From Escherichia phage sortsyn, in the sequence record MN850623.1: a DNA stretch of 42,116 nucleotides. One strand, written 5' to 3'. Position numbers and translations under genes: made by a program. Positions within the stretch are counted from its first letter, which is position 1. Each line of letters begins with the position of its first letter. The notes beneath the pieces were generated by a model, which saw only the letters and a program-made list of their open reading frames with translations, did no database searches and was not told where the DNA came from. Positions 4,459 to 22,164 of this stretch are shown one piece after another.

Positions 4459-4743
4459 TCAGCGTAAGATCGTCCAGTCATTGGCGAACAGGTCGCCCTG
4501 TGATGGGACCCAACCCGGTTGCATTACGCCTTGCGCATTTTTAAGATCAAGATGCGGGGCGATCGTAAATTCGCCAGTGATCCCGGCCTTTGCATAATCA
4601 CTACCCGGTCGCGGCTCGTTTACGGTATACCCGCCAGCCTTGATCACGAATTGATTAGCGCCATTCCATCCAGCGCGGGCAATTTTATAACCTTCCTTCA
4701 CTGCGATCAGAGCTTCGCTAAAGCTAAGGCCGGACTTAATCAT
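4459..4743 (-). CDS. DUF2829-like small phage protein
   Basis: 94 aa with GWNG...WVPSQGDLFANDW signature recalled for DUF2829; overlaps the upstream HTH gene by 8 nt. Confidence 0.5.
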   Translation of the reverse strand: MIKSGLSFSEALIAVKEGYKIARAGWNGANQFVIKAGGYTVNEPRPGSDYAKAGITGEFTIAPHLDLKNAQGVMQPGWVPSQGDLFANDWTILR

Positions 4744-4954
4744 GATTCACTCCATACTCGATCAGGTCTGCGATCGACACGTCCAGGGCGGCAGCGAGTC
4801 GGCAGAGGTTAGTAATATGTGGCAACTCGTGCCCGTTCTCGTATCGGCTCAACTGGTGGGCGATCATGCCTACGCGTTCCGCCAGATCTTTTTGCTGGAT
4901 GCCTTTCGCCTCTCGGACCTGCTTCACGAGGCAAACGGGCTTTAATGTTGCCAT
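4736..4954 (-). CDS. XRE/Cro-type helix-turn-helix transcriptional regulator
   Basis: HTH pattern QKDLAERVGMIAHQLSRYENG; AAGGAG Shine-Dalgarno 7 nt before the second ATG (4954); ORF track start 4969 is the alternative. Confidence 0.75.
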   Translation of the reverse strand: MATLKPVCLVKQVREAKGIQQKDLAERVGMIAHQLSRYENGHELPHITNLCRLAAALDVSIADLIEYGVNHD

Positions 4955-4986
4955 GATCGGCTCCTTCATTGGTTAACGTCTCCGTG

Positions 4987-7812: not shown

Positions 7813-7851
7813 TGTTGGGACCTCTCACTGGTGAATGTGAGAGGCATTAAA

Positions 7852-8319
7852 TCATTCTTTCGTGATGTTTGCAACGGGTAATTTAAGATAATATTCGAGA
7901 GCAGCCAGGCCAGCCTCGCAGCCCCACGCGACGGCAGTCCAGCCACCACGCGCCCGCGCCCGTTCGAGGATCTCCTTTTGCTCCGGCTTGAGCCGTGATT
8001 TGCTCCGGCTGTTCCGCTTCAACTCGATCAGCGCGAAGCCATAGCCCCCGCGAGGCTCAAGGATCACCCAGTCCGAGATCCCAGCCAGTCGTCCGAGCGC
8101 GTTCAACTTCGCCCCGTAGCGGGGATCGCTGGAGCCGCCGCTCTCGTTTACTGGGTGGAACGCCAGCAGCGCGTCGGGATCAGTGAGGGGATCGCCGTAG
8201 ATCTCCCGGATATTGCTCGCCATGTTTTGCTGTTCGACGTCCTCGTGTGGCGAGTAGGTCGGGATGTGGTCCAGATAGAACTCGCGCCAGAACTCAGTCT
8301 TTTTATTCAGTACGGACAT
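7852..8319 (-). CDS. VRR-NUC domain nuclease
   Basis: GISDWVILEPRGGYGFALIELKRNSRSKSRLKPEQKEIL fits the VRR-NUC D..E.K core pattern. Confidence 0.65.
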   Translation of the reverse strand: MSVLNKKTEFWREFYLDHIPTYSPHEDVEQQNMASNIREIYGDPLTDPDALLAFHPVNESGGSSDPRYGAKLNALGRLAGISDWVILEPRGGYGFALIELKRNSRSKSRLKPEQKEILERARARGGWTAVAWGCEAGLAALEYYLKLPVANITKE

Positions 8320-10362
8320 TTAAAACTCCTCATTCATGAAAATTTTGTTAGTGATAACGTCTTTACCCTTGCCGATCTTCCGGTGGCTGACCTTAAGCGG
8401 GGCCATGAAGTACGGGGCGAACTCTAATACCTGCTGGGGCGTCCGGCATTTCTTGATCGTGGCCCTCATTTTGCCGTCCAGGACGTGCTTAAGGATGCCA
8501 TTATGGACCCATTCCTTTTTCGCCGCTGGCGAGTCGCTACCGGGCCAAAATACTTGCCATGCCACAAACTGGTCCCCGTCCTTCTCCAGTTCGTACCGGA
8601 AGGCGATCCCCCCAGTCCCTCGCGCTAATTCAATTCTGAACCCTCTTACGGTCGCGTAGTCGTCGCGGCTGTACGTGGTCCGGCTTAAGTTCTTGTTAGG
8701 ATCTACGAGCGAGTTCCCGCAGCAGCGGCAGATCCTGGCTACTATGTCGTTTTGCGCCCCGCATCCCTTTTGGACCACTTTCCGCCCGCTGGCGTCCTTC
8801 CAGTCGTCGCAGGTGATGAACTGGAAAAAGTGTTCGCAGCGATCGCCGTTCTCGTCCACGTAGCGGCAGCGTCGGGCGTGTTTGCCGTTGAGCGTAGGAT
8901 GGCCCGCCTTGCGACACTTCGGACAGTCTAACTCTAATTCGCCTTTGCTCTCGTCGGCGCTGTGCTGATATGCCTCCAGCAGCGGGGAGAAGTACAGGGA
9001 TCCGAGTTCGTCCAGCGTCCCGGCGTAGTCGAGAACCAGGTGATCCTCTTTCGTCACCCCGGCGGCGATGTGGAACGGCTTAAGGATTCGCATCCCACGG
9101 CCTAAAAGCTGGGTTAGGAGCGTGAGGGAGCCGATCTTCCGCAGGATCACGGACGTGTCCCAGAACGGGACGTTAACGCCAGTCGTTAGGGCGTTAACCT
9201 GGAAAATGAACTTGATCTCCCCGGTATTGGCGCGGCGCAAAATGTCCATGCGCTTCTTGCCCGTCGTGTCGTCCGTGATGATGGCGTAAGGCGTACCAGG
9301 GGGAAGGGCCTCCGCCGCCTGTTTGCAGTGTCTCACGCCCGCACACGTCACTAACACGCCGTTCCTGTGCTGGGCGATGGCGTAGACCTCCGCCATGATC
9401 TCATGAGTGAGCTTTTTCTCTTTCAGGATCGCCTTTTGCATGGCGTCCATATCGGAGTCCGTGAACTCCTTAATGCCGTCCTCACCCGTCGATCGCCACT
9501 GGTCGAGGTTGTAGTGGAGATTGGAGATCCCGAAGTGAGTCGGAACGACCGCGCCGACGCTCACGAGGTACTCCGTCGAGATCTCGCAGACCTTTTCACG
9601 CCAGAATCCGGGCTGTTCGAGGTCGGGCTGGATGATGGACTCCACGCCCCTGTAAGGCGTCCCAGTGTAGCCGATAATGCGGAGTTCCTTCCCGTACACT
9701 GACCGGGCGCGGGCCTGTAACGTTCGGATGATGATCGTATAACTGGAGCGACCCGCCTCGATCATCTCCTCGTATGTCTCGCCCTTATGCTCGCCGATAA
9801 TGGTCGGATCCCCGAAGCCGTCGAGGATAACGGTCCCGTTATCGTCCCGCAGGTACTCCGGGACCACGCGCTCCTCCGAGCGGATCAGGTCCTCTATGTT
9901 GACGTGATGGCATTCATCGATCAGCAGGAACAACGGCGCGTAATGGGCGAGGGGCTGGCCTGGGCGGATCCCTCCGATCACTGTACCCTCGGAGCCGACG
10001 ACGATCGGGAAGTGTGCAGACTTGCGGCCTAAGCTGGCGCAGTAGATCGAGGAGTTTACGCCGAAGTTCCGCAACTCCTCAAAGTCCTGATCGATGATCT
10101 CACCCTGGCGGGACAGGATCATGGCGGGGAATCCCATATCCCTGATCCGGCGGGCCAGCATGGAGATCATGATGGTTTTCCCGGCGCTCACGGCGGCGTC
10201 CACAATGACCGGGCCGGGATATTTACGGATAGCCTTCGCGCAAGCCTCATATGCGACGAACTGGTGATCGTATGGCGTTACGGGCATATCACCGAGGGCG
10301 CGGAGAATGGCGTCGCGATCGAGGGCCGCGATCTGCCTTTCTAATGTCTCGACCATTTCCAT
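8320..10362 (-). CDS. Superfamily 2 DNA helicase (DEAH-type) with C-terminal Cys-rich zinc-binding extension
   Basis: Walker A AAVSAGKT, motif II LLIDECHH, Cys clusters CPKCRK...CRCCGNS. Confidence 0.85.
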   Translation of the reverse strand: MEMVETLERQIAALDRDAILRALGDMPVTPYDHQFVAYEACAKAIRKYPGPVIVDAAVSAGKTIMISMLARRIRDMGFPAMILSRQGEIIDQDFEELRNFGVNSSIYCASLGRKSAHFPIVVGSEGTVIGGIRPGQPLAHYAPLFLLIDECHHVNIEDLIRSEERVVPEYLRDDNGTVILDGFGDPTIIGEHKGETYEEMIEAGRSSYTIIIRTLQARARSVYGKELRIIGYTGTPYRGVESIIQPDLEQPGFWREKVCEISTEYLVSVGAVVPTHFGISNLHYNLDQWRSTGEDGIKEFTDSDMDAMQKAILKEKKLTHEIMAEVYAIAQHRNGVLVTCAGVRHCKQAAEALPPGTPYAIITDDTTGKKRMDILRRANTGEIKFIFQVNALTTGVNVPFWDTSVILRKIGSLTLLTQLLGRGMRILKPFHIAAGVTKEDHLVLDYAGTLDELGSLYFSPLLEAYQHSADESKGELELDCPKCRKAGHPTLNGKHARRCRYVDENGDRCEHFFQFITCDDWKDASGRKVVQKGCGAQNDIVARICRCCGNSLVDPNKNLSRTTYSRDDYATVRGFRIELARGTGGIAFRYELEKDGDQFVAWQVFWPGSDSPAAKKEWVHNGILKHVLDGKMRATIKKCRTPQQVLEFAPYFMAPLKVSHRKIGKGKDVITNKIFMNEEF

Positions 10363-10369
10363 TTATTCC

Positions 10370-10399
10370 TTGTAATATCATTAAAGCGTGATTTATAGT
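10370..10399 (+). promoter_or_regulatory. Putative sigma70 promoter in the divergent helicase/primase control region
   Basis: -35 TTGTAA, 18-bp spacer, -10 TATAGT, 25 nt before the AGGAGG SD of the primase-like gene. Confidence 0.4.
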
Positions 10400-10424: not shown

Positions 10425-11243
10425 ATGGCAATTTATAAAAAAGAGGACGTTCTCGCCGCAATGCCCGGCAAGTGGGAACAGGCGCTCCTCGATCTGTGCG
10501 GCTGGGACCGCAAGGCGTTTAACGGCAATCACCAGCCTTGCCCGATATGCGGCGGGACGGACCGCTTTCGATGGGGCCACAAACAGGCCACGAAGAAGGC
10601 CGAGGGCTTCGGCTACTGTTCCGGCTCCTGTGGTGGCGCTCGTGATGGCATGTTTTGGTTTATGACCAGCAGATCGCAGCCATTCAACGAGGCGATCAAC
10701 GACCTGGGCGACTGGATAGGCGGACTTACCCCGGAGAAGCGGGAAACGATCGTCAAAGAGGCCCGCAAGTATGCCCGCCAGCAGGACAAGCCCGCGCAGG
10801 ACTGGGAGCTGACCCCGGAGGACGTGGAAAAGGTCATGAGCAAAGGCGAAATGCGCGACGGCTTCCTGTATGTTCCATGCGCTCGTCCACTGGGGGGATC
10901 GCTGGGGCCGTGGTGCAACGTGGCGAAGATCGGCTCCGACAGGTCTGTGGTGTTTGCCGCTGGTGGCCCGACGTGGGGCGCGGTAGGGCTGATCCACCCA
11001 GCGCCGGACGCTCCGGTGTATCTGGTGGCGGATCCGGTCCATGCCGTGAACGTGGCGGCGAGAGGGGAGGCGGAGGTCTGGCTGACGTTCCGGCCTATGA
11101 ACGCGATCCAGGCGTCGGCGATCTACGATGGCGATCGGGAGATCCGGTTCGTCTACACTGACCCGGACGAGGTTTTCCTGTACGGCTACGAGAGGACGGG
11201 GAGGCCATGCGTCGGCGGACATCTTGCGGGGGCGTTCGGGTAA
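10425..11243 (+). CDS. Putative DNA primase (primase-helicase type zinc ribbon, Toprim-like remainder uncertain)
   Basis: HQPCPICGGTDRFRW...YCSGSCGG resembles the zinc-binding domain of P4/T7-type primases; AGGAGG SD 6 nt upstream of ATG. Confidence 0.5.
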   Translation: MAIYKKEDVLAAMPGKWEQALLDLCGWDRKAFNGNHQPCPICGGTDRFRWGHKQATKKAEGFGYCSGSCGGARDGMFWFMTSRSQPFNEAINDLGDWIGGLTPEKRETIVKEARKYARQQDKPAQDWELTPEDVEKVMSKGEMRDGFLYVPCARPLGGSLGPWCNVAKIGSDRSVVFAAGGPTWGAVGLIHPAPDAPVYLVADPVHAVNVAARGEAEVWLTFRPMNAIQASAIYDGDREIRFVYTDPDEVFLYGYERTGRPCVGGHLAGAFG

Positions 11244-14712: not shown

Positions 14713-14773
14713 ACGCCAGAGATGATCTACAATGCCGGGGCAGTATACCGCACAATTTCACGAGGACAAAATT

Positions 14774-15538
14774 ATGGCTTTTTGGCATCGGCAATACCGC
14801 GCTGATCTTTTCGGATGGAAGGTATCGCGCATCCTTGATCCCTCCGCTCCTGGTGTACATCAAAAAGATGTTATCTGGCTGGCGTCTGAACCTGCAAACC
14901 TCGATCCTACTGGGATGTTTTATTTCCAGCCTGATCCGAAGTCAGACCAGCCTCTCCAGTTTTTGGTAAACCTTAGCGGCAACAACGGCAGCGACGTCAC
15001 GGGATCATACGTGCCTAACGGCTCCTTAAAATCATTCTCCGTACAAGTAGCCGGGGGCGTTCCTCCGTATACCTTCGCATGGTTCCGGCGTTCCGGCGGC
15101 GTGGACAACTCCGTGGGGACTAACTCCAGCACCTACTCGATCCCCGCCTACTCCTCCAGCAATAACGGGGATTATTTTTGTCGCGTGACCGATGCGCAGG
15201 GCGTCATGATCGAATCGCTACGCGAGCGCACCAAAGTATTGATCAGGCTGACGACTAACCTCCCGTTAACTGATGCGTGGGCCGTGGGCGTGTCTGACAG
15301 CCTTGCGATCGTTGTCTCTGATGGCCTTACCCCGTATACCTACCAATGGCAGAAGTCCACGGACGGCGGGGCAACCTGGAGCAACGTCGCTAACGGTGGG
15401 ACCGTCTCCGGGGCCACTACTGCAACGCTGACCAACTCCGCCCCCGCGCTGGGTGATGCCGGAATGTACCGCTGTATTATCACCGACTCAGCGGGCTATA
15501 AAGTCCAGTCCGTACAATGCGCCGTAACGGTGGCATAA
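14774..15538 (+). CDS. Moron-like protein with two immunoglobulin-like domains
   Basis: Two Ig-type repeats (PPYTFAWFRRSGG...GDYFCRVTDAQG and TPYTYQWQKSTDGG...GMYRCIITDSAG); GAGGA SD before ATG 14774 (ORF track start 14732); flanked by terminators; first 60 nt about 52 percent GC. Confidence 0.7.
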   Translation: MAFWHRQYRADLFGWKVSRILDPSAPGVHQKDVIWLASEPANLDPTGMFYFQPDPKSDQPLQFLVNLSGNNGSDVTGSYVPNGSLKSFSVQVAGGVPPYTFAWFRRSGGVDNSVGTNSSTYSIPAYSSSNNGDYFCRVTDAQGVMIESLRERTKVLIRLTTNLPLTDAWAVGVSDSLAIVVSDGLTPYTYQWQKSTDGGATWSNVANGGTVSGATTATLTNSAPALGDAGMYRCIITDSAGYKVQSVQCAVTVA

Positions 15539-15568
15539 AAAAAGGGGGCCAACTGGCCCCCGATTTAT
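15539..15568. terminator. Rho-independent terminator, bidirectional, between convergent blocks
   Basis: A-run, stem GGGGGCC/GGCCCCC, then GATTTATT. Confidence 0.7.
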
Positions 15569-16086
15569 TGCTGACGCTCCACGGCGTCGTAATTCCTTTC
15601 GCATACCTCCCCGGCGGTGATCGCCTTCTCCGCTATATCAGCATACCGTCCAGCGACTTCGCCAGTCCGTCGTAACAGGTCGGCGTACATTCTGGCGGTC
15701 TTTTCCCCTGACGCCCTTCCGAGGGCAGCGGTCTGATCAGCGGCTTCGCGTCGGGTGGCTTCCTTGCTGGCTCGTTCGAGCAACCGATCAAGGGCAGCGC
15801 CAGCAGTAGCAGCAGCGGCGCGAGCTTTTGCGGCTTGTTCATTCGCATATTTTACGGACTCCTCGCGGGCAATGGCCCGGCCTTGTTCAATGATACGGGC
15901 GGCGGCTTGTGCGTTCGCTTCCTGGGTGGATTCCTTCGCGATCCTGGCATTGTCGCGAGCGGTCCAGCCCCGGTCCGTCCAGGCCGAGCCAGCCCAGAAA
16001 GATCCCCCCAGCGCCAGCAGCACGACAACGACGAGCAGCAGCGATCGCCAGTGAGTCGAGAGGAACAACCGGAGGGCGGCGATCAT
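15565..16086 (-). CDS. Rz-type inner-membrane spanin
   Basis: N-terminal TM helix (SLLLVVVVLLALGG), Ala/Arg-rich coiled-coil periplasmic domain, ATGA overlap with endolysin stop. Confidence 0.8.
   Translation of the reverse strand: MIAALRLFLSTHWRSLLLVVVVLLALGGSFWAGSAWTDRGWTARDNARIAKESTQEANAQAAARIIEQGRAIAREESVKYANEQAAKARAAAATAGAALDRLLERASKEATRREAADQTAALGRASGEKTARMYADLLRRTGEVAGRYADIAEKAITAGEVCERNYDAVERQQ
15633..15848 (-). CDS. Rz1-type outer-membrane lipoprotein spanin, embedded out of frame in Rz
   Basis: Lipoprotein signal with lipobox LIGC, Pro-rich mature part, entirely inside the Rz gene in another frame. Confidence 0.75.
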   Translation of the reverse strand: MRMNKPQKLAPLLLLLALPLIGCSNEPARKPPDAKPLIRPLPSEGRQGKRPPECTPTCYDGLAKSLDGMLI

Positions 16087-18900: not shown

Positions 18901-19340
18901 CTCTCTTTCCTCATGGCTTGTTTACATTGTAAGGCAGCGAGGGCCAACTCCGGGCCAATCTCGACGCCTGGGGGGAACTCCATCGGATCCGACACTGGCG
19001 GGGCCAGCTTCGAACGGTCAACGCGCAGATCACGCAGCAGTCCGGCGCGTTCCATCTTTGCCGTGTGACGGCAGAGCGCGGAGAGCTTCCGCTGGTCAAC
19101 GCCGGGGCATTCGAAGAACGCGGCGAACAATTGCTCCGACGGCTTAAGCATGGAGAACGCTTTCCGAGTCTCGTCCGTAGGTACGAACGGATCGATCAGC
19201 CCCTTGTCGATAGCGTCCAGCACCGACAGATCAGTGGGCGCTATCTTGTCGAGTATCTCCTGGCGCTTCTCCGCCGCCGTCTTGCGCGGCGCTCCGGCGG
19301 TAGCCGGGGCCGTAGTTCGCTTCTGTTTGAATAAGTCCAC
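18897..19340 (-). CDS. Hypothetical protein, first gene of the minus-strand block
   Basis: GTG start with GGAGG SD; ATGA-type overlap with next gene. Confidence 0.5.
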   Translation of the reverse strand: MDLFKQKRTTAPATAGAPRKTAAEKRQEILDKIAPTDLSVLDAIDKGLIDPFVPTDETRKAFSMLKPSEQLFAAFFECPGVDQRKLSALCRHTAKMERAGLLRDLRVDRSKLAPPVSDPMEFPPGVEIGPELALAALQCKQAMRKER

Positions 19341-19367
19341 GTTCGCCTCCGTTGTTGTTCGTCTTTA

Positions 19368-19395
19368 AGCATACATGACGTAACAGTGATGTAAA
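19368..19395 (-). promoter_or_regulatory. Putative sigma70 promoter for the minus-strand block 19340 to 15565
   Basis: Minus-strand -35 TTTACA, 16-bp spacer, -10 TATGCT in the AT-rich divergent intergenic region. Confidence 0.4.
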
Positions 19396-19480
19396 GAGTT
19401 TTCTTTACTGGTGCGGATTGACGGCGTTATGAATCACTGTTAAGTTATGAACACTTTATTAACGCAGCAGGGAAAAGACA

Positions 19481-21169
19481 ATGACTGATTATGATGAAGT
19501 AATGCCGACACCAGAGCGCAGCGAGGAGGAGCTGATCGAGATGGTCCGGGGCGAGTTCTCCGGCCCGGTAACGCCTCCACCTGCTGACGACGTGCCAGAG
19601 GCTCCTATGGAGTTCTACGAGGAACAGGCCAGCCTGTACGCGGCGAGAGAAGCAGAATCCGCCCAGGATGCCGGGGCGTTCTTCGACTTCGACGAGCACG
19701 AGGCCGCAGAGTGGACGGCAACCGTCCGCAACGACAAGCCGACGATCGTCAAGACGTCCGACCTCACCGACGAGGAGAAGGACGAAGCACGTCGCCAGGA
19801 ACTCCTCGCGAAGCAGCGCGAGAAGCAGCGCAAGAAGATCGACGAGGCGCTGGCGGTCGAGGCAATGGACGACCCGCTGATCGCCAGCCTGAACAAGTCG
19901 AACGAGATCAAGCCCGTTAACTATGTGATCCAGTCGCTGATCCCGGAGCGCTCCGTGGGCTTCCTGGTCGGCGAGTCCGGCGCAAAGAAAACGTTCGCAG
20001 CGTTACAAATGGCGATTTGTGTCGCCACCGGGATCGACTTCGGCGGCTTGCCAGTCCGACAGGGATCCGTGATGTACTTCGCGCCGGAGGATGCGAGCGG
20101 CGTCCGTGAACGTTACGCGGGATGGAAGTACACGCAGAACAAGAACGAGCCGTTACCCAACTTTTGGGTATTGTCCCAGCAGGTCCCACTACACCGCGAG
20201 AGCGAACTCCAGACGTTCGCGGCAACCATCAAGGCGTCCCCGTTCTTCGGCCTGAACCCGCTTTCCCTGATCGTGATCGATACCTACAGCGCCAACAGCG
20301 CGGGCCAGAAAGTGGGCGAGCGCATGATCCCAGGCAAGGGCGACGAGCCGGACCGCTGGGAGGGCGGGACCGACTTCAACGAGAACGACAACAACGTGGC
20401 GGCGATCCTGATGCGTAACGCGGCGTTACTGGCTGAATGGCTTAACTGTGCCGTGATGATCATCCACCACACCGGGAAGGACACCGAGCGAGGCGCTCGT
20501 GGCGCGTCAACCCTCCGCGCTAACGCCGGATTCGAGATCATGGTGAAGAAGTGCAGGGACAAGGAGCTTTTTGTGATTGAGCACACGAAGGCCAAAGGCT
20601 GTGCGCTTCTCCCGGCGCGAGCCATGCGCACGAAGTCCGCGAAGTTACCGCCTGACCTGGTGAAGATGAAGCGCGAGGCGCTGGCGAGGATGCAGCCTGT
20701 ACGCCCGGAGGCGAAGGCCAACCCGGCGGCGTGGGAGATCGGCGACAACCTGGGGACGCTGGTCGTCATTAACGCGCTGGAGGCAGTGCCAGCCGAGAAG
20801 GACGAGGGCGAGAAGCCGGAGGACACGCGCAAGCGCAGCAAGAAGGAGGAACAGGCGATCCGACTGCTGGCCTACGTCGTGGAATACTCGCAGCAGCGCA
20901 AGGACAAGGGCTACCGCTTGCCGAAGCTGACCAAAGGCATGTTATCCGATCACTTCCGCAACTTCGCAGAGCCGCCGATTAAGCGGACGGACTTTTTCCA
21001 CGCCTTCGAACATGCGACCAAAAAAATGATGATCATCAAAATGGCAGGGGACGAAACGCTGACCGCCTCAACCGAAGCGGCTCCGCTCCTGGGTGGAATC
21101 CGGGATCAGAAGCCACTCCCGACCGACTGGAAACCGACCGAAGGATCCGACGATCTGAGTGACTTTTAA
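19481..21169 (+). CDS. RepA-like AAA_25/RecA-fold ATPase, putative replication initiator-helicase
   Basis: GFLVGESGAKKTFAALQMA (deviant Walker A), Walker B LIVIDTYS, IIHHTGKD motif typical of RepA/DnaB-like ATPases; acidic N-terminal region. Confidence 0.65.
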   Translation: MTDYDEVMPTPERSEEELIEMVRGEFSGPVTPPPADDVPEAPMEFYEEQASLYAAREAESAQDAGAFFDFDEHEAAEWTATVRNDKPTIVKTSDLTDEEKDEARRQELLAKQREKQRKKIDEALAVEAMDDPLIASLNKSNEIKPVNYVIQSLIPERSVGFLVGESGAKKTFAALQMAICVATGIDFGGLPVRQGSVMYFAPEDASGVRERYAGWKYTQNKNEPLPNFWVLSQQVPLHRESELQTFAATIKASPFFGLNPLSLIVIDTYSANSAGQKVGERMIPGKGDEPDRWEGGTDFNENDNNVAAILMRNAALLAEWLNCAVMIIHHTGKDTERGARGASTLRANAGFEIMVKKCRDKELFVIEHTKAKGCALLPARAMRTKSAKLPPDLVKMKREALARMQPVRPEAKANPAAWEIGDNLGTLVVINALEAVPAEKDEGEKPEDTRKRSKKEEQAIRLLAYVVEYSQQRKDKGYRLPKLTKGMLSDHFRNFAEPPIKRTDFFHAFEHATKKMMIIKMAGDETLTASTEAAPLLGGIRDQKPLPTDWKPTEGSDDLSDF

Positions 21170-21422
21170 CGGGGCGTTGTGTTCCGTTAACGTTATCCCC
21201 TCTCTTATAGAGAGAGGGATAAACGCGTAACGTTAACAACATATGCCGGAAAGTCTAAACAACGTTAACTATGAACTGAAAATTAACATAACAGATTCAT
21301 GAAGTTACAAGAGAAGTGTTAACAGGTTTATGGCAAATCGTTAATGCGGAAATCAGGGGGTAAAAATCGGGGGCCACCCCCGAAAAATCCCCGCTTAAAT
21401 AATCATTGATAAGTGATGCGAA
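21170..21422. other. Candidate replication origin: AT-rich non-coding region with GTTAAC-containing iterons and a ~28-bp imperfect palindrome
   Basis: 253-bp gap after the RepA-like gene; GTTAAC at 21186, 21232, 21254, 21318; AACGTTAAC repeated; palindrome TATCCCCTCTCTTATAGAGAGAGGGATA at 21195-21222; GC hairpin GGGGGCCACCCCC. Confidence 0.45.
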
Positions 21423-21611
21423 ATGAGCGACGATAACAACGTGATTTTATTCCCCCGACGGACAGCAGTCGGACAGGTTGAACCAGCACGATCGAACCAC
21501 TGGATCGAACGGTTCGGATTGTGGAATTACTTCCTGATGGTGGCGACAACCATCGGCGCGATCGTGGTCGGACTGGCGGCGATCGTGTTTAACATGCTGG
21601 GCCTGATGTGA
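21423..21611 (+). CDS. Small membrane protein
   Basis: 62 aa with C-terminal hydrophobic helix. Confidence 0.4.
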   Translation: MSDDNNVILFPRRTAVGQVEPARSNHWIERFGLWNYFLMVATTIGAIVVGLAAIVFNMLGLM

Positions 21612-21641
21612 GGCCCGTCACGACGACGAGGAAACGAGGAG

Positions 21642-21938
21642 ATGATGATGAAAGACAATGCAGGGCAGAAATCAGGCGTCGCGGATATCTCGCGCATGTA
21701 TGTAGGCCCACACCAGCGCCAGACGTTGCTCGATAACGCTTACGCCCAGTTTAAGCGCAAGGGCTACACCCACAACCAGGCGACGGCGCTCGCACACCAG
21801 GCCGTCGAGAGCTTCCTCCACGACCACCGCAAGAAGCAACTGGAGGCCATCCAGAACGCGAACGCAGAGGACGCCGACCAGATGGCCCAGGACTTTATCG
21901 ACCAGGAACTGGGACCGAAAGGGGGCGCTGATGCGTAA
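21642..21938 (+). CDS. Hypothetical protein
   Basis: 98-aa ORF; GAGGAG directly abuts the first of three ATGs, so the true start may be 21645 or 21648. Confidence 0.45.
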   Translation: MMMKDNAGQKSGVADISRMYVGPHQRQTLLDNAYAQFKRKGYTHNQATALAHQAVESFLHDHRKKQLEAIQNANAEDADQMAQDFIDQELGPKGGADA

Positions 21939-22164
21939 GCCAATGACCACCGAGGAGATCAAGCTGATGGCGGAGGGACACCCGCCAGGCAAGATCGACC
22001 GCGACGCCGAGGAGGTGATTATGGACTTGTCCGGGCGCTGGGCCGCGCTGGAAGTCCTGGAGCGTGGTCTGGTCGAACTCCGGGAGAGCAGCGTCTCACC
22101 CCGGCAGCGCGACGCCTACGACACCGCAGCGACGATCGTCCGCAAGGTGAGGCTGGGGAAATGA
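21931..22164 (+). CDS. Hypothetical protein
   Basis: 77-aa ORF, overlapping neighbours. Confidence 0.4.
   Translation: MRKPMTTEEIKLMAEGHPPGKIDRDAEEVIMDLSGRWAALEVLERGLVELRESSVSPRQRDAYDTAATIVRKVRLGK

Follow-up and report, generated by a model that had tools for sequence, protein, structure and literature searches.

A candidate replication origin next to the helicase gene of Escherichia phage sortsyn and its relatives in Murrayvirus and Sortsnevirus

The noncoding interval at positions 21170–21422 of Escherichia phage sortsyn raises the question of whether it is the site at which this phage starts to replicate its DNA and, if so, which protein would recognize and open it. The sequence record (MN850623.1), a stretch of 42,116 bp with 59% GC that is referred to here as the window, is a Murrayvirus genome, sharing 99.4% identity over positions 19300–22000 with Enterobacteria phage IME_EC2 (genus Murrayvirus) and 69–86% with other Murrayvirus and Sortsnevirus phages of Escherichia, Salmonella, Klebsiella, and Kosakonia. 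Its structural genes are of the podovirus type (P22/Sf6 kind), and it also encodes a single-stranded DNA-binding protein (SSB), Erf, an exonuclease VIII-like nuclease, a superfamily 2 (SF2) helicase, a zinc-ribbon primase, and Dam. The open reading frames (ORFs) scanned against Pfam (20) and PHROGs (15) revealed no phage DNA polymerase, some ORFs lying outside both scans, and no replication studies of Murrayvirus or Sortsnevirus were found in the literature.

The interval, hereafter the gap, spans 253 bp at 41% GC, between the stop codon of an AAA_25 gene (19481–21169) on its left and a 62-aa ORF (21423–21611) on its right, exactly the AT-rich and noncoding sequence that an earlier sequence-only reading had described directly behind the AAA_25 gene. 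Comparison with relatives and structure prediction together indicate that the left two thirds of the gap (about 21165–21345) is probably the phage replication origin. It is regarded as a candidate origin because of a conserved layout, compensatory changes in a palindrome, the least stable duplex of the genome, the co-variation of site class with a predicted winged helix, and the recurrence of the same sites in the helicase promoter. The elements of this region are as follows.

21166–21171: site 0, TTAACG, overlapping the stop codon TAA and forming an inverted pair with CCGTTAA at 21184–21190
21186–21191: site 1, GTTAAC (CCGTTAACGT), +17 nt from the stop, matched in position by GGTAAC at +15 in Lumpael, P0008, sortkaff, and Kc237
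21193–21222: palindrome TTATCCCCTCTCT-TATA-GAGAGAGGGATAA, with perfect arms CCCTCTCT (21198–21205) and AGAGAGGG (21211–21218)
21226–21237: site 2, CGTAAC followed by GTTAAC (AACGTTAAC, 21229–21237), +63 nt from the stop
21261–21269: site 3, AACGTTAAC, +95 nt from the stop, at the left edge of the AT-rich core
21270–21317: AT-rich core, candidate DNA-unwinding element, 48 bp, 27% GC, with degenerate sites ATTAAC (21282) and GTTAC (21304)
21295–21307, plus strand: IHF-like element ATTCATGAAGTTA, with 2 mismatches to the consensus WATCAANNNNTTR
21318–21323: site 4, GTTAAC, +149 nt from the stop, at the right edge of the AT-rich core
21339–21345: site 5, CGTTAAT, a degenerate copy

The claim of at least four GTTAAC cores was confirmed, with copies at 21186, 21232, 21264, and 21318 followed by GTTAAT at 21340, as was that of a recurring sequence, which is present as AACGTTAAC at 21229 and 21261 and, inverted, as GTTAACGTT at 21186. 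GTTAAC occurs 17 times in the whole window against 4.8 expected copies, and four or more copies in the gap were reached in none of 20,000 local dinucleotide shuffles. CGTTAA/TTAACG is found six times within 21165–21345, where the rest of the genome would predict 0.16 copies (P = 2e-8); degenerate copies accompany these six exact ones, and relatives hold 4–9 copies of their own site class. The array begins at the helicase stop codon (21166), ends at 21345, and occupies the same position in 17 relatives. The recurrence of any 6-mer four to five times, by comparison, is attained by 6–18% of shuffles and is thus a weak test in AT-rich DNA, so the strength of the observation derives from the comparison with relatives.

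The interpretation of these repeats as classical iterons was not upheld, as they are 6-bp sites dispersed in both orientations rather than tandem repeats of 17–22 bp; the longest direct repeats in the core measure 9 bp, and tandem direct repeats of 17–22 bp or of 20 bp are absent. Because the sites of the window are palindromic, their orientation is undefined, and only one or two of them lie to the right of the AT-rich core. The window's gap contains no DnaA box with at most one mismatch and no GATC cluster, neither feature is conserved among the relatives, and no sigma-70 promoter-like site scored inside the gap. The lack of conserved DnaA boxes fits a self-sufficient initiator that is independent of the host initiator. 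GC skew tracks the direction of transcription and is uninformative about the origin. Two further GTTAAC pairs (4972/5036 and 9172/9193) were considered as secondary origin-like clusters and rejected, as they lie in or next to coding DNA; paired GTTAAC also occurs in the corresponding genome parts of Lumpael, although the origin sites of that phage are GGTAAC. The second pair, at 9172–9198 inside the SF2 helicase gene (8320–10362, minus strand), consists of two GTTAAC copies 21 bp apart (GACGTTAACGCCAGTCGTTAGGGCGTTAACC), and since the corresponding helicase gene of Lumpael also carries a GTTAAC pair, it is probably conserved coding sequence and not a second initiator-binding cluster.

For comparison, 17 homologous gaps from Murrayvirus and Sortsnevirus were assembled from GenBank records and from contigs found via the helicase protein. 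All of them extend for about 255–275 bp up to the next ORF downstream, and their elements follow the same order, namely a short site, the palindrome, two additional sites, an AT-rich segment that includes an IHF-like element, and further sites, with equivalent sites at offsets of +15/17, +57/63, +95/103, and +149/150 from the helicase stop. In lineages whose sites are non-palindromic (the class III relatives below), one inverted pair surrounds the palindrome and another surrounds the AT-rich, IHF-like core; the counterpart of site 4 in Lumpael and P0008 is GGTAAC at +150, inverted relative to their left-boundary site.

The palindrome, previously described as imperfect and about 28 bp long, does exist and spans 21193–21222, where it forms the core of a 52-bp composite palindrome (21186–21237) flanked by the inverted pair GTTAACGTTA / TAACGTTAAC. 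As single-stranded DNA, the composite folds at −15.1 kcal/mol (z = −6.6 against shuffles). A palindrome is located 14–39 nt past the helicase stop in all 17 relatives, in 11 distinct sequences that always run from a pyrimidine arm through an A/T center (TATA or TAAA) to a purine arm, with arms such as CCCTCTCT, CCCCCCC, CTCTCTCT, CTCCCTGT, and ATACCCCCCC. Each version retains at least 8 perfectly complementary base pairs in its arms, and at positions 2–8 from the center, C:G and T:A pairs replace each other on both sides with few mismatches, which is the pattern of compensatory change. A possible function of the palindrome is that of a site for extrusion or entry.

The least stable 100-bp duplex of the window also lies in this region (21232–21331, −120 kcal/mol against a mean of −152 and a standard deviation of 7), and the least stable 200-bp duplex of the whole genome is 21153–21352. 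Within the AT-rich core, the element resembling a binding site of integration host factor (IHF), whose established consensus is WATCAANNNNTTR, has plus-strand counterparts in 15 of the 17 relatives, between +124 and +139 nt past the stop, with no mismatch in Lumpael, Sortsne, P0020, and P0022, one mismatch in eight others, and two in the window.

While the layout is constant, the sequence of the short sites differs between lineages, and the following classes can be distinguished.

Class I, CGTTAA(C): the window, P0002, P0011, P0013
Class II, ATAACA(T): ST231, P0004
Class III, GGTAAC(A): Lumpael, P0008, sortkaff, Kc237
Class IV, (T)GTAACC: KMB41, a metagenomic contig, P0010
Class V, GGTAAC/GGTATC-type: Sortsne, P0020, P0022
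(A)GTAACA: P0017

When counted by class, the table of sites is nearly block-diagonal, each genome having its own class in both the gap and the helicase promoter, where the other classes are almost entirely missing. In every genome, the site class of its own gap also occurs 1–5 times in the promoter and 5′ untranslated region (5′UTR) of the helicase gene, which, as a pattern of sequence, is that of an initiator binding both its origin and its own promoter. The gene concerned and the relevant parts of it are listed below.

19481–21169, plus strand: helicase gene, 562 aa, superfamily 4 (SF4) hexameric type, RSF1010 RepA/DnaB-like, AAA_25 (Pfam E 9e-23)
20840–21070: predicted C-terminal winged-helix domain, aa 454–530
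20984–21025: helix 3 of the winged-helix domain, RTDFFHAFEHATKK, aa 502–515
19379–19464: same-class sites in the helicase promoter/5′UTR, comprising one exact TTAACG (19459–19464) and degenerate CGTAAC (19379–19384), GCGTTAT (19424–19430), and TGTTAAG (19438–19444)

A candidate helicase promoter, TTGACG(19418)-17-TAAGTT(19441), stands among the same-class sites, and the set at 19379–19464 looks like an autoregulatory operator. The sequence-only reading had taken the AAA_25 protein for a RepA-type, iteron-binding initiator, an identification that has to be abandoned, as AAA_25/RSF1010 RepA is a hexameric helicase and not the iteron-binding RepA of pSC101, P1, or F. Its remark on a deviant Walker A motif was correct: GESGAKKT, with Lys in place of the usual penultimate Gly, is invariant in all 24 close homologues, while distant homologues have the canonical GxSGxGKS, and judged across these sequences it is a fixed trait of the family. 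The ATPase core is 75–95% identical between lineages, with a mosaic boundary near 19900, upstream of which the N-terminal ~140 aa (19481–19900) are acidic, mostly with a predicted local distance difference test score (pLDDT) below 60, and show 23–60% DNA identity.

The extra C-terminal winged-helix domain makes an initiator role plausible for this helicase, and the comparison of classes points to the same part of the protein. Helix 3 with RTDFFHAFEHATK accompanies class I in two divergent backgrounds, the window with P0002 on one side and P0011 with P0013 on the other, the helicases of the latter being 59–61% identical overall to that of the window. Compared across the genomes, the site class follows helix 3 of the predicted winged-helix domain and not the flanking genes. 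Two other candidates for the site binder were rejected. A divergently transcribed 147-aa protein shows 84–90% identity between the window and class II and only 54–59% between the window and the class I members P0011/P0013, and the downstream genes belong to a block that the window and Lumpael have in common, yet the two differ in class. From about 21330 on, the window and class III Lumpael are 78–100% identical, while the left part of the gap shows 40–60% identity.

In the mechanism that we infer from these features, the C-terminal winged-helix domain of the SF4 helicase, of the RSF1010-RepA/DnaB type, would recognize the short sites, which in this phage are (C)GTTAAC, arranged as one pair around the palindrome and the other around the 48-bp AT-rich core with its IHF-like element. 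The bound helicase subunits, probably together with a bend introduced by host IHF, would melt the AT-rich core and/or extrude the palindrome, after which the helicase would assemble on the exposed single strands without a separate loader, and the replisome would be completed by the phage zinc-ribbon primase (10425–11243) and host DNA polymerase III. Through the same sites in the helicase promoter, the protein would repress its own synthesis. To our knowledge, the finding and opening of an origin by its own helicase is otherwise known only for viral and island helicases of the superfamily 3 (SF3) or MCM type. The broader proposal, that an SF4 replicative helicase, independent of any loader, locates and opens its origin via a fused winged helix, with at least five site specificities (CGTTAAC, ATAACAT, GGTAAC, GTAACC, and GGTATC-type) arising through changes in the recognition helix, is advanced more tentatively.

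Several considerations weigh against an origin opened by its own helicase. Normally, an SF4 helicase depends on a loader or on an initiator distinct from it, examples being RepC for RSF1010 RepA, and DnaA and DnaC for DnaB. The winged-helix assignment comes from an AlphaFold2 model built on a shallow alignment (12–17 sequences) with a mean pLDDT of 74, and the C-terminal 123 aa have no Pfam match even at E ≤ 10 and correspond to no family in the PDB by sequence. The presence of cognate sites in the promoter is typical of a binder resembling a transcription factor, and such a role alone could explain the sites in the gap. IHF-like elements with two mismatches, such as that of the window, are common in AT-rich DNA, and no natural plasmid carrying the helicase gene together with the gap module was found, only distant matches to the ATPase domain. 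The coding DNA of the helicase C-terminus also adjoins the gap, so that co-inheritance of both as one old recombination block could yield the correlation between protein and site without any binding. Recent recombination as a trivial cause of the correlation, by contrast, is unsupported, since no block exceeds 90% identity; over the helicase C-terminus and gap, the window and P0011 are only 58–85% identical, hence the shared block is not recent. A fold search of the C-terminal domain in BFVD yielded weak matches only, some of them to the C-termini of other phage primases or helicases, and a search for related loci in viral contigs returned close relatives only.

The candidate origin does not extend through the whole gap. 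The remaining part, 21346–21422, looks like a separate regulatory unit outside the origin core and belongs to the downstream mosaic block, which is probably a transcription insulator combined with an operator/promoter unit. The hairpin module of G-runs and A-tracts in this unit would serve as an insulator, a terminator, or a bend. In the relatives, the site array is likewise followed by a G-run/A-tract module with an inverted repeat, a ATCATTGA motif, and a gene for a small membrane protein. The corresponding features of the window are given here.

21346–21396: G-run/A-tract module GGAAATC-AGGGGGTAAAAATC-GGGGGCCACCCCCGAAAAATC-CCCGC, which holds the hairpin at 21367–21383
21402–21417: palindromic operator-like motif ATCA-N8-TGAT (ATCATTGATAAGTGAT)
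21423–21611, plus strand: first downstream gene, 62 aa, with a hydrophobic C-terminal segment, conserved in both genera

The GC hairpin pointed out earlier is present (TCGGGGG-CCA-CCCCCGA, 21367–21383), although its inclusion in the origin core could not be maintained, given that it lies in a different mosaic block and that its fold is unexceptional for its composition (z −1.2 to −1.7; 12–23 of 200 shuffles fold at least as well). In the window, it scores as an intrinsic-terminator-like site on the minus strand, with 7 pairs followed by TTTTT. At the position of the module, relatives have G-runs and A- or T-tract repeats with an inverted repeat, such as TGCGGCATTTT in 2.5 copies in P0011, and KMB41, ST231, and P0011 carry different inverted repeats at the position of the hairpin. 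The orientation of the A/T tracts flips between close relatives, P0002 and P0017 having T-tracts on the plus strand, which suggests that the role of the module is independent of orientation; for this reason, and because the fold of the hairpin is not significant, a conserved terminator is improbable. The proposal of a candidate origin at this locus fits every comparative test that was run, with corrections to the RepA reasoning, to the iteron reasoning, and to the inclusion of the GC hairpin and the right ~80 bp of the gap.

The motif at 21402 is most readily read as an operator/promoter element of the downstream operon. Its ATCATTG half is kept in 16 of 17 gaps, Kc237, in which the downstream block is replaced, having the reversed TTCAATGAC only. 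Perfect copies of ATCA-N8-TGAT number 3 in the window (7851–7866, 10377–10392, and 21402–21417) against 0.42 expected, and degenerate copies are present at 19374–19390 (minus strand) and 19433–19449 (plus strand) in the divergent promoter region 19341–19480; each copy, perfect or degenerate, borders a gene or falls within a promoter region. At 10377 (TTGTAA-18-TATAGT) and, on the minus strand, at 19374 (TTTACA-16-TATGCT), the motif occupies the spacer of a sigma-70-like promoter. It probably serves as an operator for a regulator of the phage, such as the XRE-family helix-turn-helix protein encoded at 4736–4969 (minus strand). The downstream gene shares 87–100% DNA identity with Lumpael. Its homologues of ~55–62 aa (ORFs in the loci L007, L009, and L010) are unannotated in several GenBank records, including those of sortkaff and IME279, and in Sortsnevirus its GTG start overlaps the stop of an upstream mini-ORF of 8 codons (ACGTGA). 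A hairpin elsewhere in the window, AAAAAGGGGGCCA-TG-TGGCCCCCGATTT at 15539–15566, shares a GGGGGCCA core with that at 21367–21383; located between the convergent genes 14732–15538 (plus strand) and 15565–16086 (minus strand), it looks like a bidirectional terminator.

If the motif at 21402 is an operator, it may be asked whether the entire gap serves transcription control alone, with the short sites as operators, the palindrome and GC hairpin ending helicase transcription, the right end acting as the promoter of the next operon, and replication starting elsewhere or proceeding by recombination. The recurrence of that motif in sigma-70-like spacers, the terminator-like hairpin, and the operator-typical position of same-class sites between the −35 element and the start codon of the helicase gene agree with this explanation, and the encoded Erf, exonuclease VIII-like nuclease, and SSB would make recombination-dependent replication possible. 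It is nevertheless unlikely, because the sites are spread over about 180 bp at a distance of 80–250 bp upstream of the next start codon and surround the least stable duplex and an IHF-like element, an arrangement that is typical for an origin and not for an operator. No promoter-like site scored in the left part of the gap, a U-tract on the coding strand is conserved at neither hairpin, the A/T tracts flipping as described, and the fusion of a predicted DNA-binding domain to a replicative helicase is difficult to explain by regulation alone. The hairpins could also act in RNA, as a stabilizer or processing site in the 3′UTR of the helicase mRNA or as a small RNA, which would suit a palindrome close behind the stop codon, the folding of the plus-strand RNA at −77.6 kcal/mol (z = −5.6, against −3.0 for the minus strand), and the use of G-U pairs in some stems. 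A perfect DNA palindrome, however, gives the same fold on both strands, no Rfam family was found in 20900–21800 at E ≤ 1, where only a chance microRNA match appeared (E 0.96, 18 bits against a gathering score of 94), and both the class-specific promoter sites and their co-variation with a protein helix would be left unexplained; of the explanations considered, a function in RNA is the least probable. Hardly more probable is a role as the end of the genome, as the start of packaging, or in site-specific recombination, where the palindrome would be the core, the repeats would be of the arm type, and IHF would be an accessory. The combination of a palindrome, short repeats, and an IHF-like site does resemble attP- or parS-type sites, and 5 of about 21 records or contigs have a break in the 650 bp that follow the helicase stop, at the distances given here.

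Sortsne, MK651787, position 1: +134
Kc237, MW258710: +234
P0017 contig (L023): +295
IME279, MF614100: +532
ST231, OP921041: +609

The naive binomial probability of this clustering is 1e-5, which becomes 3e-3 if only three breaks are independent. Breaks of assembly at AT-rich, hairpin-rich DNA of low coverage are the simpler explanation; start points copied from other records or a real end could also produce such a pattern. The joined record ends are colinear with relatives that are unopened here, and IME279 has only a 24-bp terminal duplication or assembly overlap. The large terminase matches chains 4idh and 4iee, deposited as 'Gene 2 protein' (E 4e-85), which we take to be the large terminase of phage Sf6, a headful packager; headful packaging would predict circularly permuted genomes without fixed ends and thus disfavors a physical end. 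In addition, the gap is 5.6 kb from the terminase genes, the Pfam and PHROGs scans (20 and 15 ORFs) detected no integrase, protelomerase, or ParA/ParB, and the site class follows the helicase C-terminus.

Returning to the reading of the gap as an origin served by its own helicase, the closest functional parallel would be, by analogy, the self-loading Rep helicases of staphylococcal pathogenicity islands (SaPIs) with their downstream iteron origin. The C-terminal winged-helix domain of these proteins binds 6–12 penta- or hexanucleotide iterons just downstream of rep, which flank a central AT-rich region with at least two iterons per side in opposite directions, and no loader is needed (PMC9371898). 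In the phage, the site array is likewise directly downstream of the helicase ORF, a C-terminal winged-helix domain is predicted, the count of six exact CGTTAA/TTAACG sites lies within 6–12, specificity differs between elements, and no separate loader is known. The AT-rich core (27% GC) is flanked by sites; these are palindromic, and only one or two lie on the right. SaPI Reps are SF3- or MCM-type AAA+ proteins, whereas the motor here is an SF4 RecA fold like that of RSF1010 RepA/DnaB, there is no detectable sequence homology, and the palindrome of pyrimidine run, TATA, and purine run and the IHF-like element are not part of the SaPI ori as described in PMC9371898. As its helicase belongs to SF4 and not to SF3/MCM, the phage would work like the SaPI system without being a member of it.

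Other systems share individual features. RSF1010 RepA is a hexameric 5′–3′ helicase that is loaded at oriV by RepC, which binds 20-bp direct iterons and melts oriV, while RepA does not recognize the origin (PMC8965321). The phage helicase is of the same SF4 hexameric, RepA-like type as that of this IncQ plasmid, with the differences that its sites are 6 bp long and dispersed in both orientations and that the helicase itself has a predicted winged-helix domain; no RepC-like protein was found in the Pfam scans (20 window ORFs) or PHROGs scans (15), other ORFs being unscanned. The RSF1010 oriV system also has the RepB′ primase. The alpha protein of satellite phage P4 combines initiator and helicase in one polypeptide, with a C-terminal winged helix that binds short repeats (TGTTCACC) in the origin, as is proposed for the single polypeptide with a predicted C-terminal winged helix described here. 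Alpha consists of a primase and an SF3 helicase, and P4 depends on both ori and crr as separate repeat clusters, while the second cluster in sortsyn is in the promoter of the helicase gene and the primase is a separate gene. In the core origin of SV40 and polyomavirus, on which the initiator-helicase forms a double hexamer, the central palindrome contains pentanucleotide sites as inverted pairs, with an AT tract and a melting imperfect palindrome at its flanks. The parallel is one of function only, the virus being eukaryotic and large T an SF3 helicase whose origin-binding domain is unrelated. Rep_3 iteron origins (pSC101, P1, F, and R6K) resemble the gap in their AT-rich region, repeated initiator sites, IHF site, and autoregulation of the rep promoter, and differ in that the phage has no Rep_3 protein (AAA_25 only in Pfam), no tandem direct repeats of 17–22 bp, and no DnaA boxes. 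The essential cis element of pRN1 is a stem-loop directly downstream of the gene for the helicase-primase ORF904, and the integrity of its stem matters (PMC4234260). This position just 3′ of a helicase gene is a precedent for the palindrome, with the differences that pRN1 is an archaeal plasmid with a 100-nt stem-loop, no short-site array, and a prim-pol fused to an SF3 helicase.

Further observations concern the helicase gene itself. At the end of the protein (aa 547–562, 21119–21166), an invariant T-D-W precedes an acidic tail whose last residue is Phe (...TDWKPTEGSDDLSDF; ...TDW...DDLSDF). The tail resembles the C-terminal tips of SSB proteins, that of the phage (5496–6047, minus strand) ending in DFDDDIPF, as well as the acidic, Phe-terminated tail through which T7 gp4 contacts its polymerase. 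By analogy, this tail may recruit host replisome proteins. In the record of IME_EC2 (KF591601, L001 1115–2802), the helicase gene is split into a 'DNA primase' of 515 aa and a 47-aa ORF, in contrast to the single intact ORF of 562 aa in the window, and in that of KMB41 (OR539216, L004 1185–2840), the orthologue is labeled 'cobalt-zinc-cadmium resistance protein CzcA'. Both labels look like database annotation errors.

Should the favored reading be correct, an origin would be assigned for the first time in Murrayvirus and Sortsnevirus, both of them genera of lytic podoviruses of enterobacteria that have received little study, and the annotation of the helicase gene in the databases (IME_EC2 'DNA primase' and KMB41 CzcA) would be corrected. 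The reading would also extend the principle of the self-loading initiator-helicase from SF3/MCM to the DnaB/RepA class, which is the textbook case of dependence on a loader. If the broader proposal on site specificities holds as well, the family would constitute a natural set of orthogonal replicons. The lineage-specific pairs of site and recognition helix are open to a swap of helix 3 (RTDFFHAFEHATKK to KHQFARAFKYATEK) and may supply orthogonal origin/initiator pairs for phage engineering.

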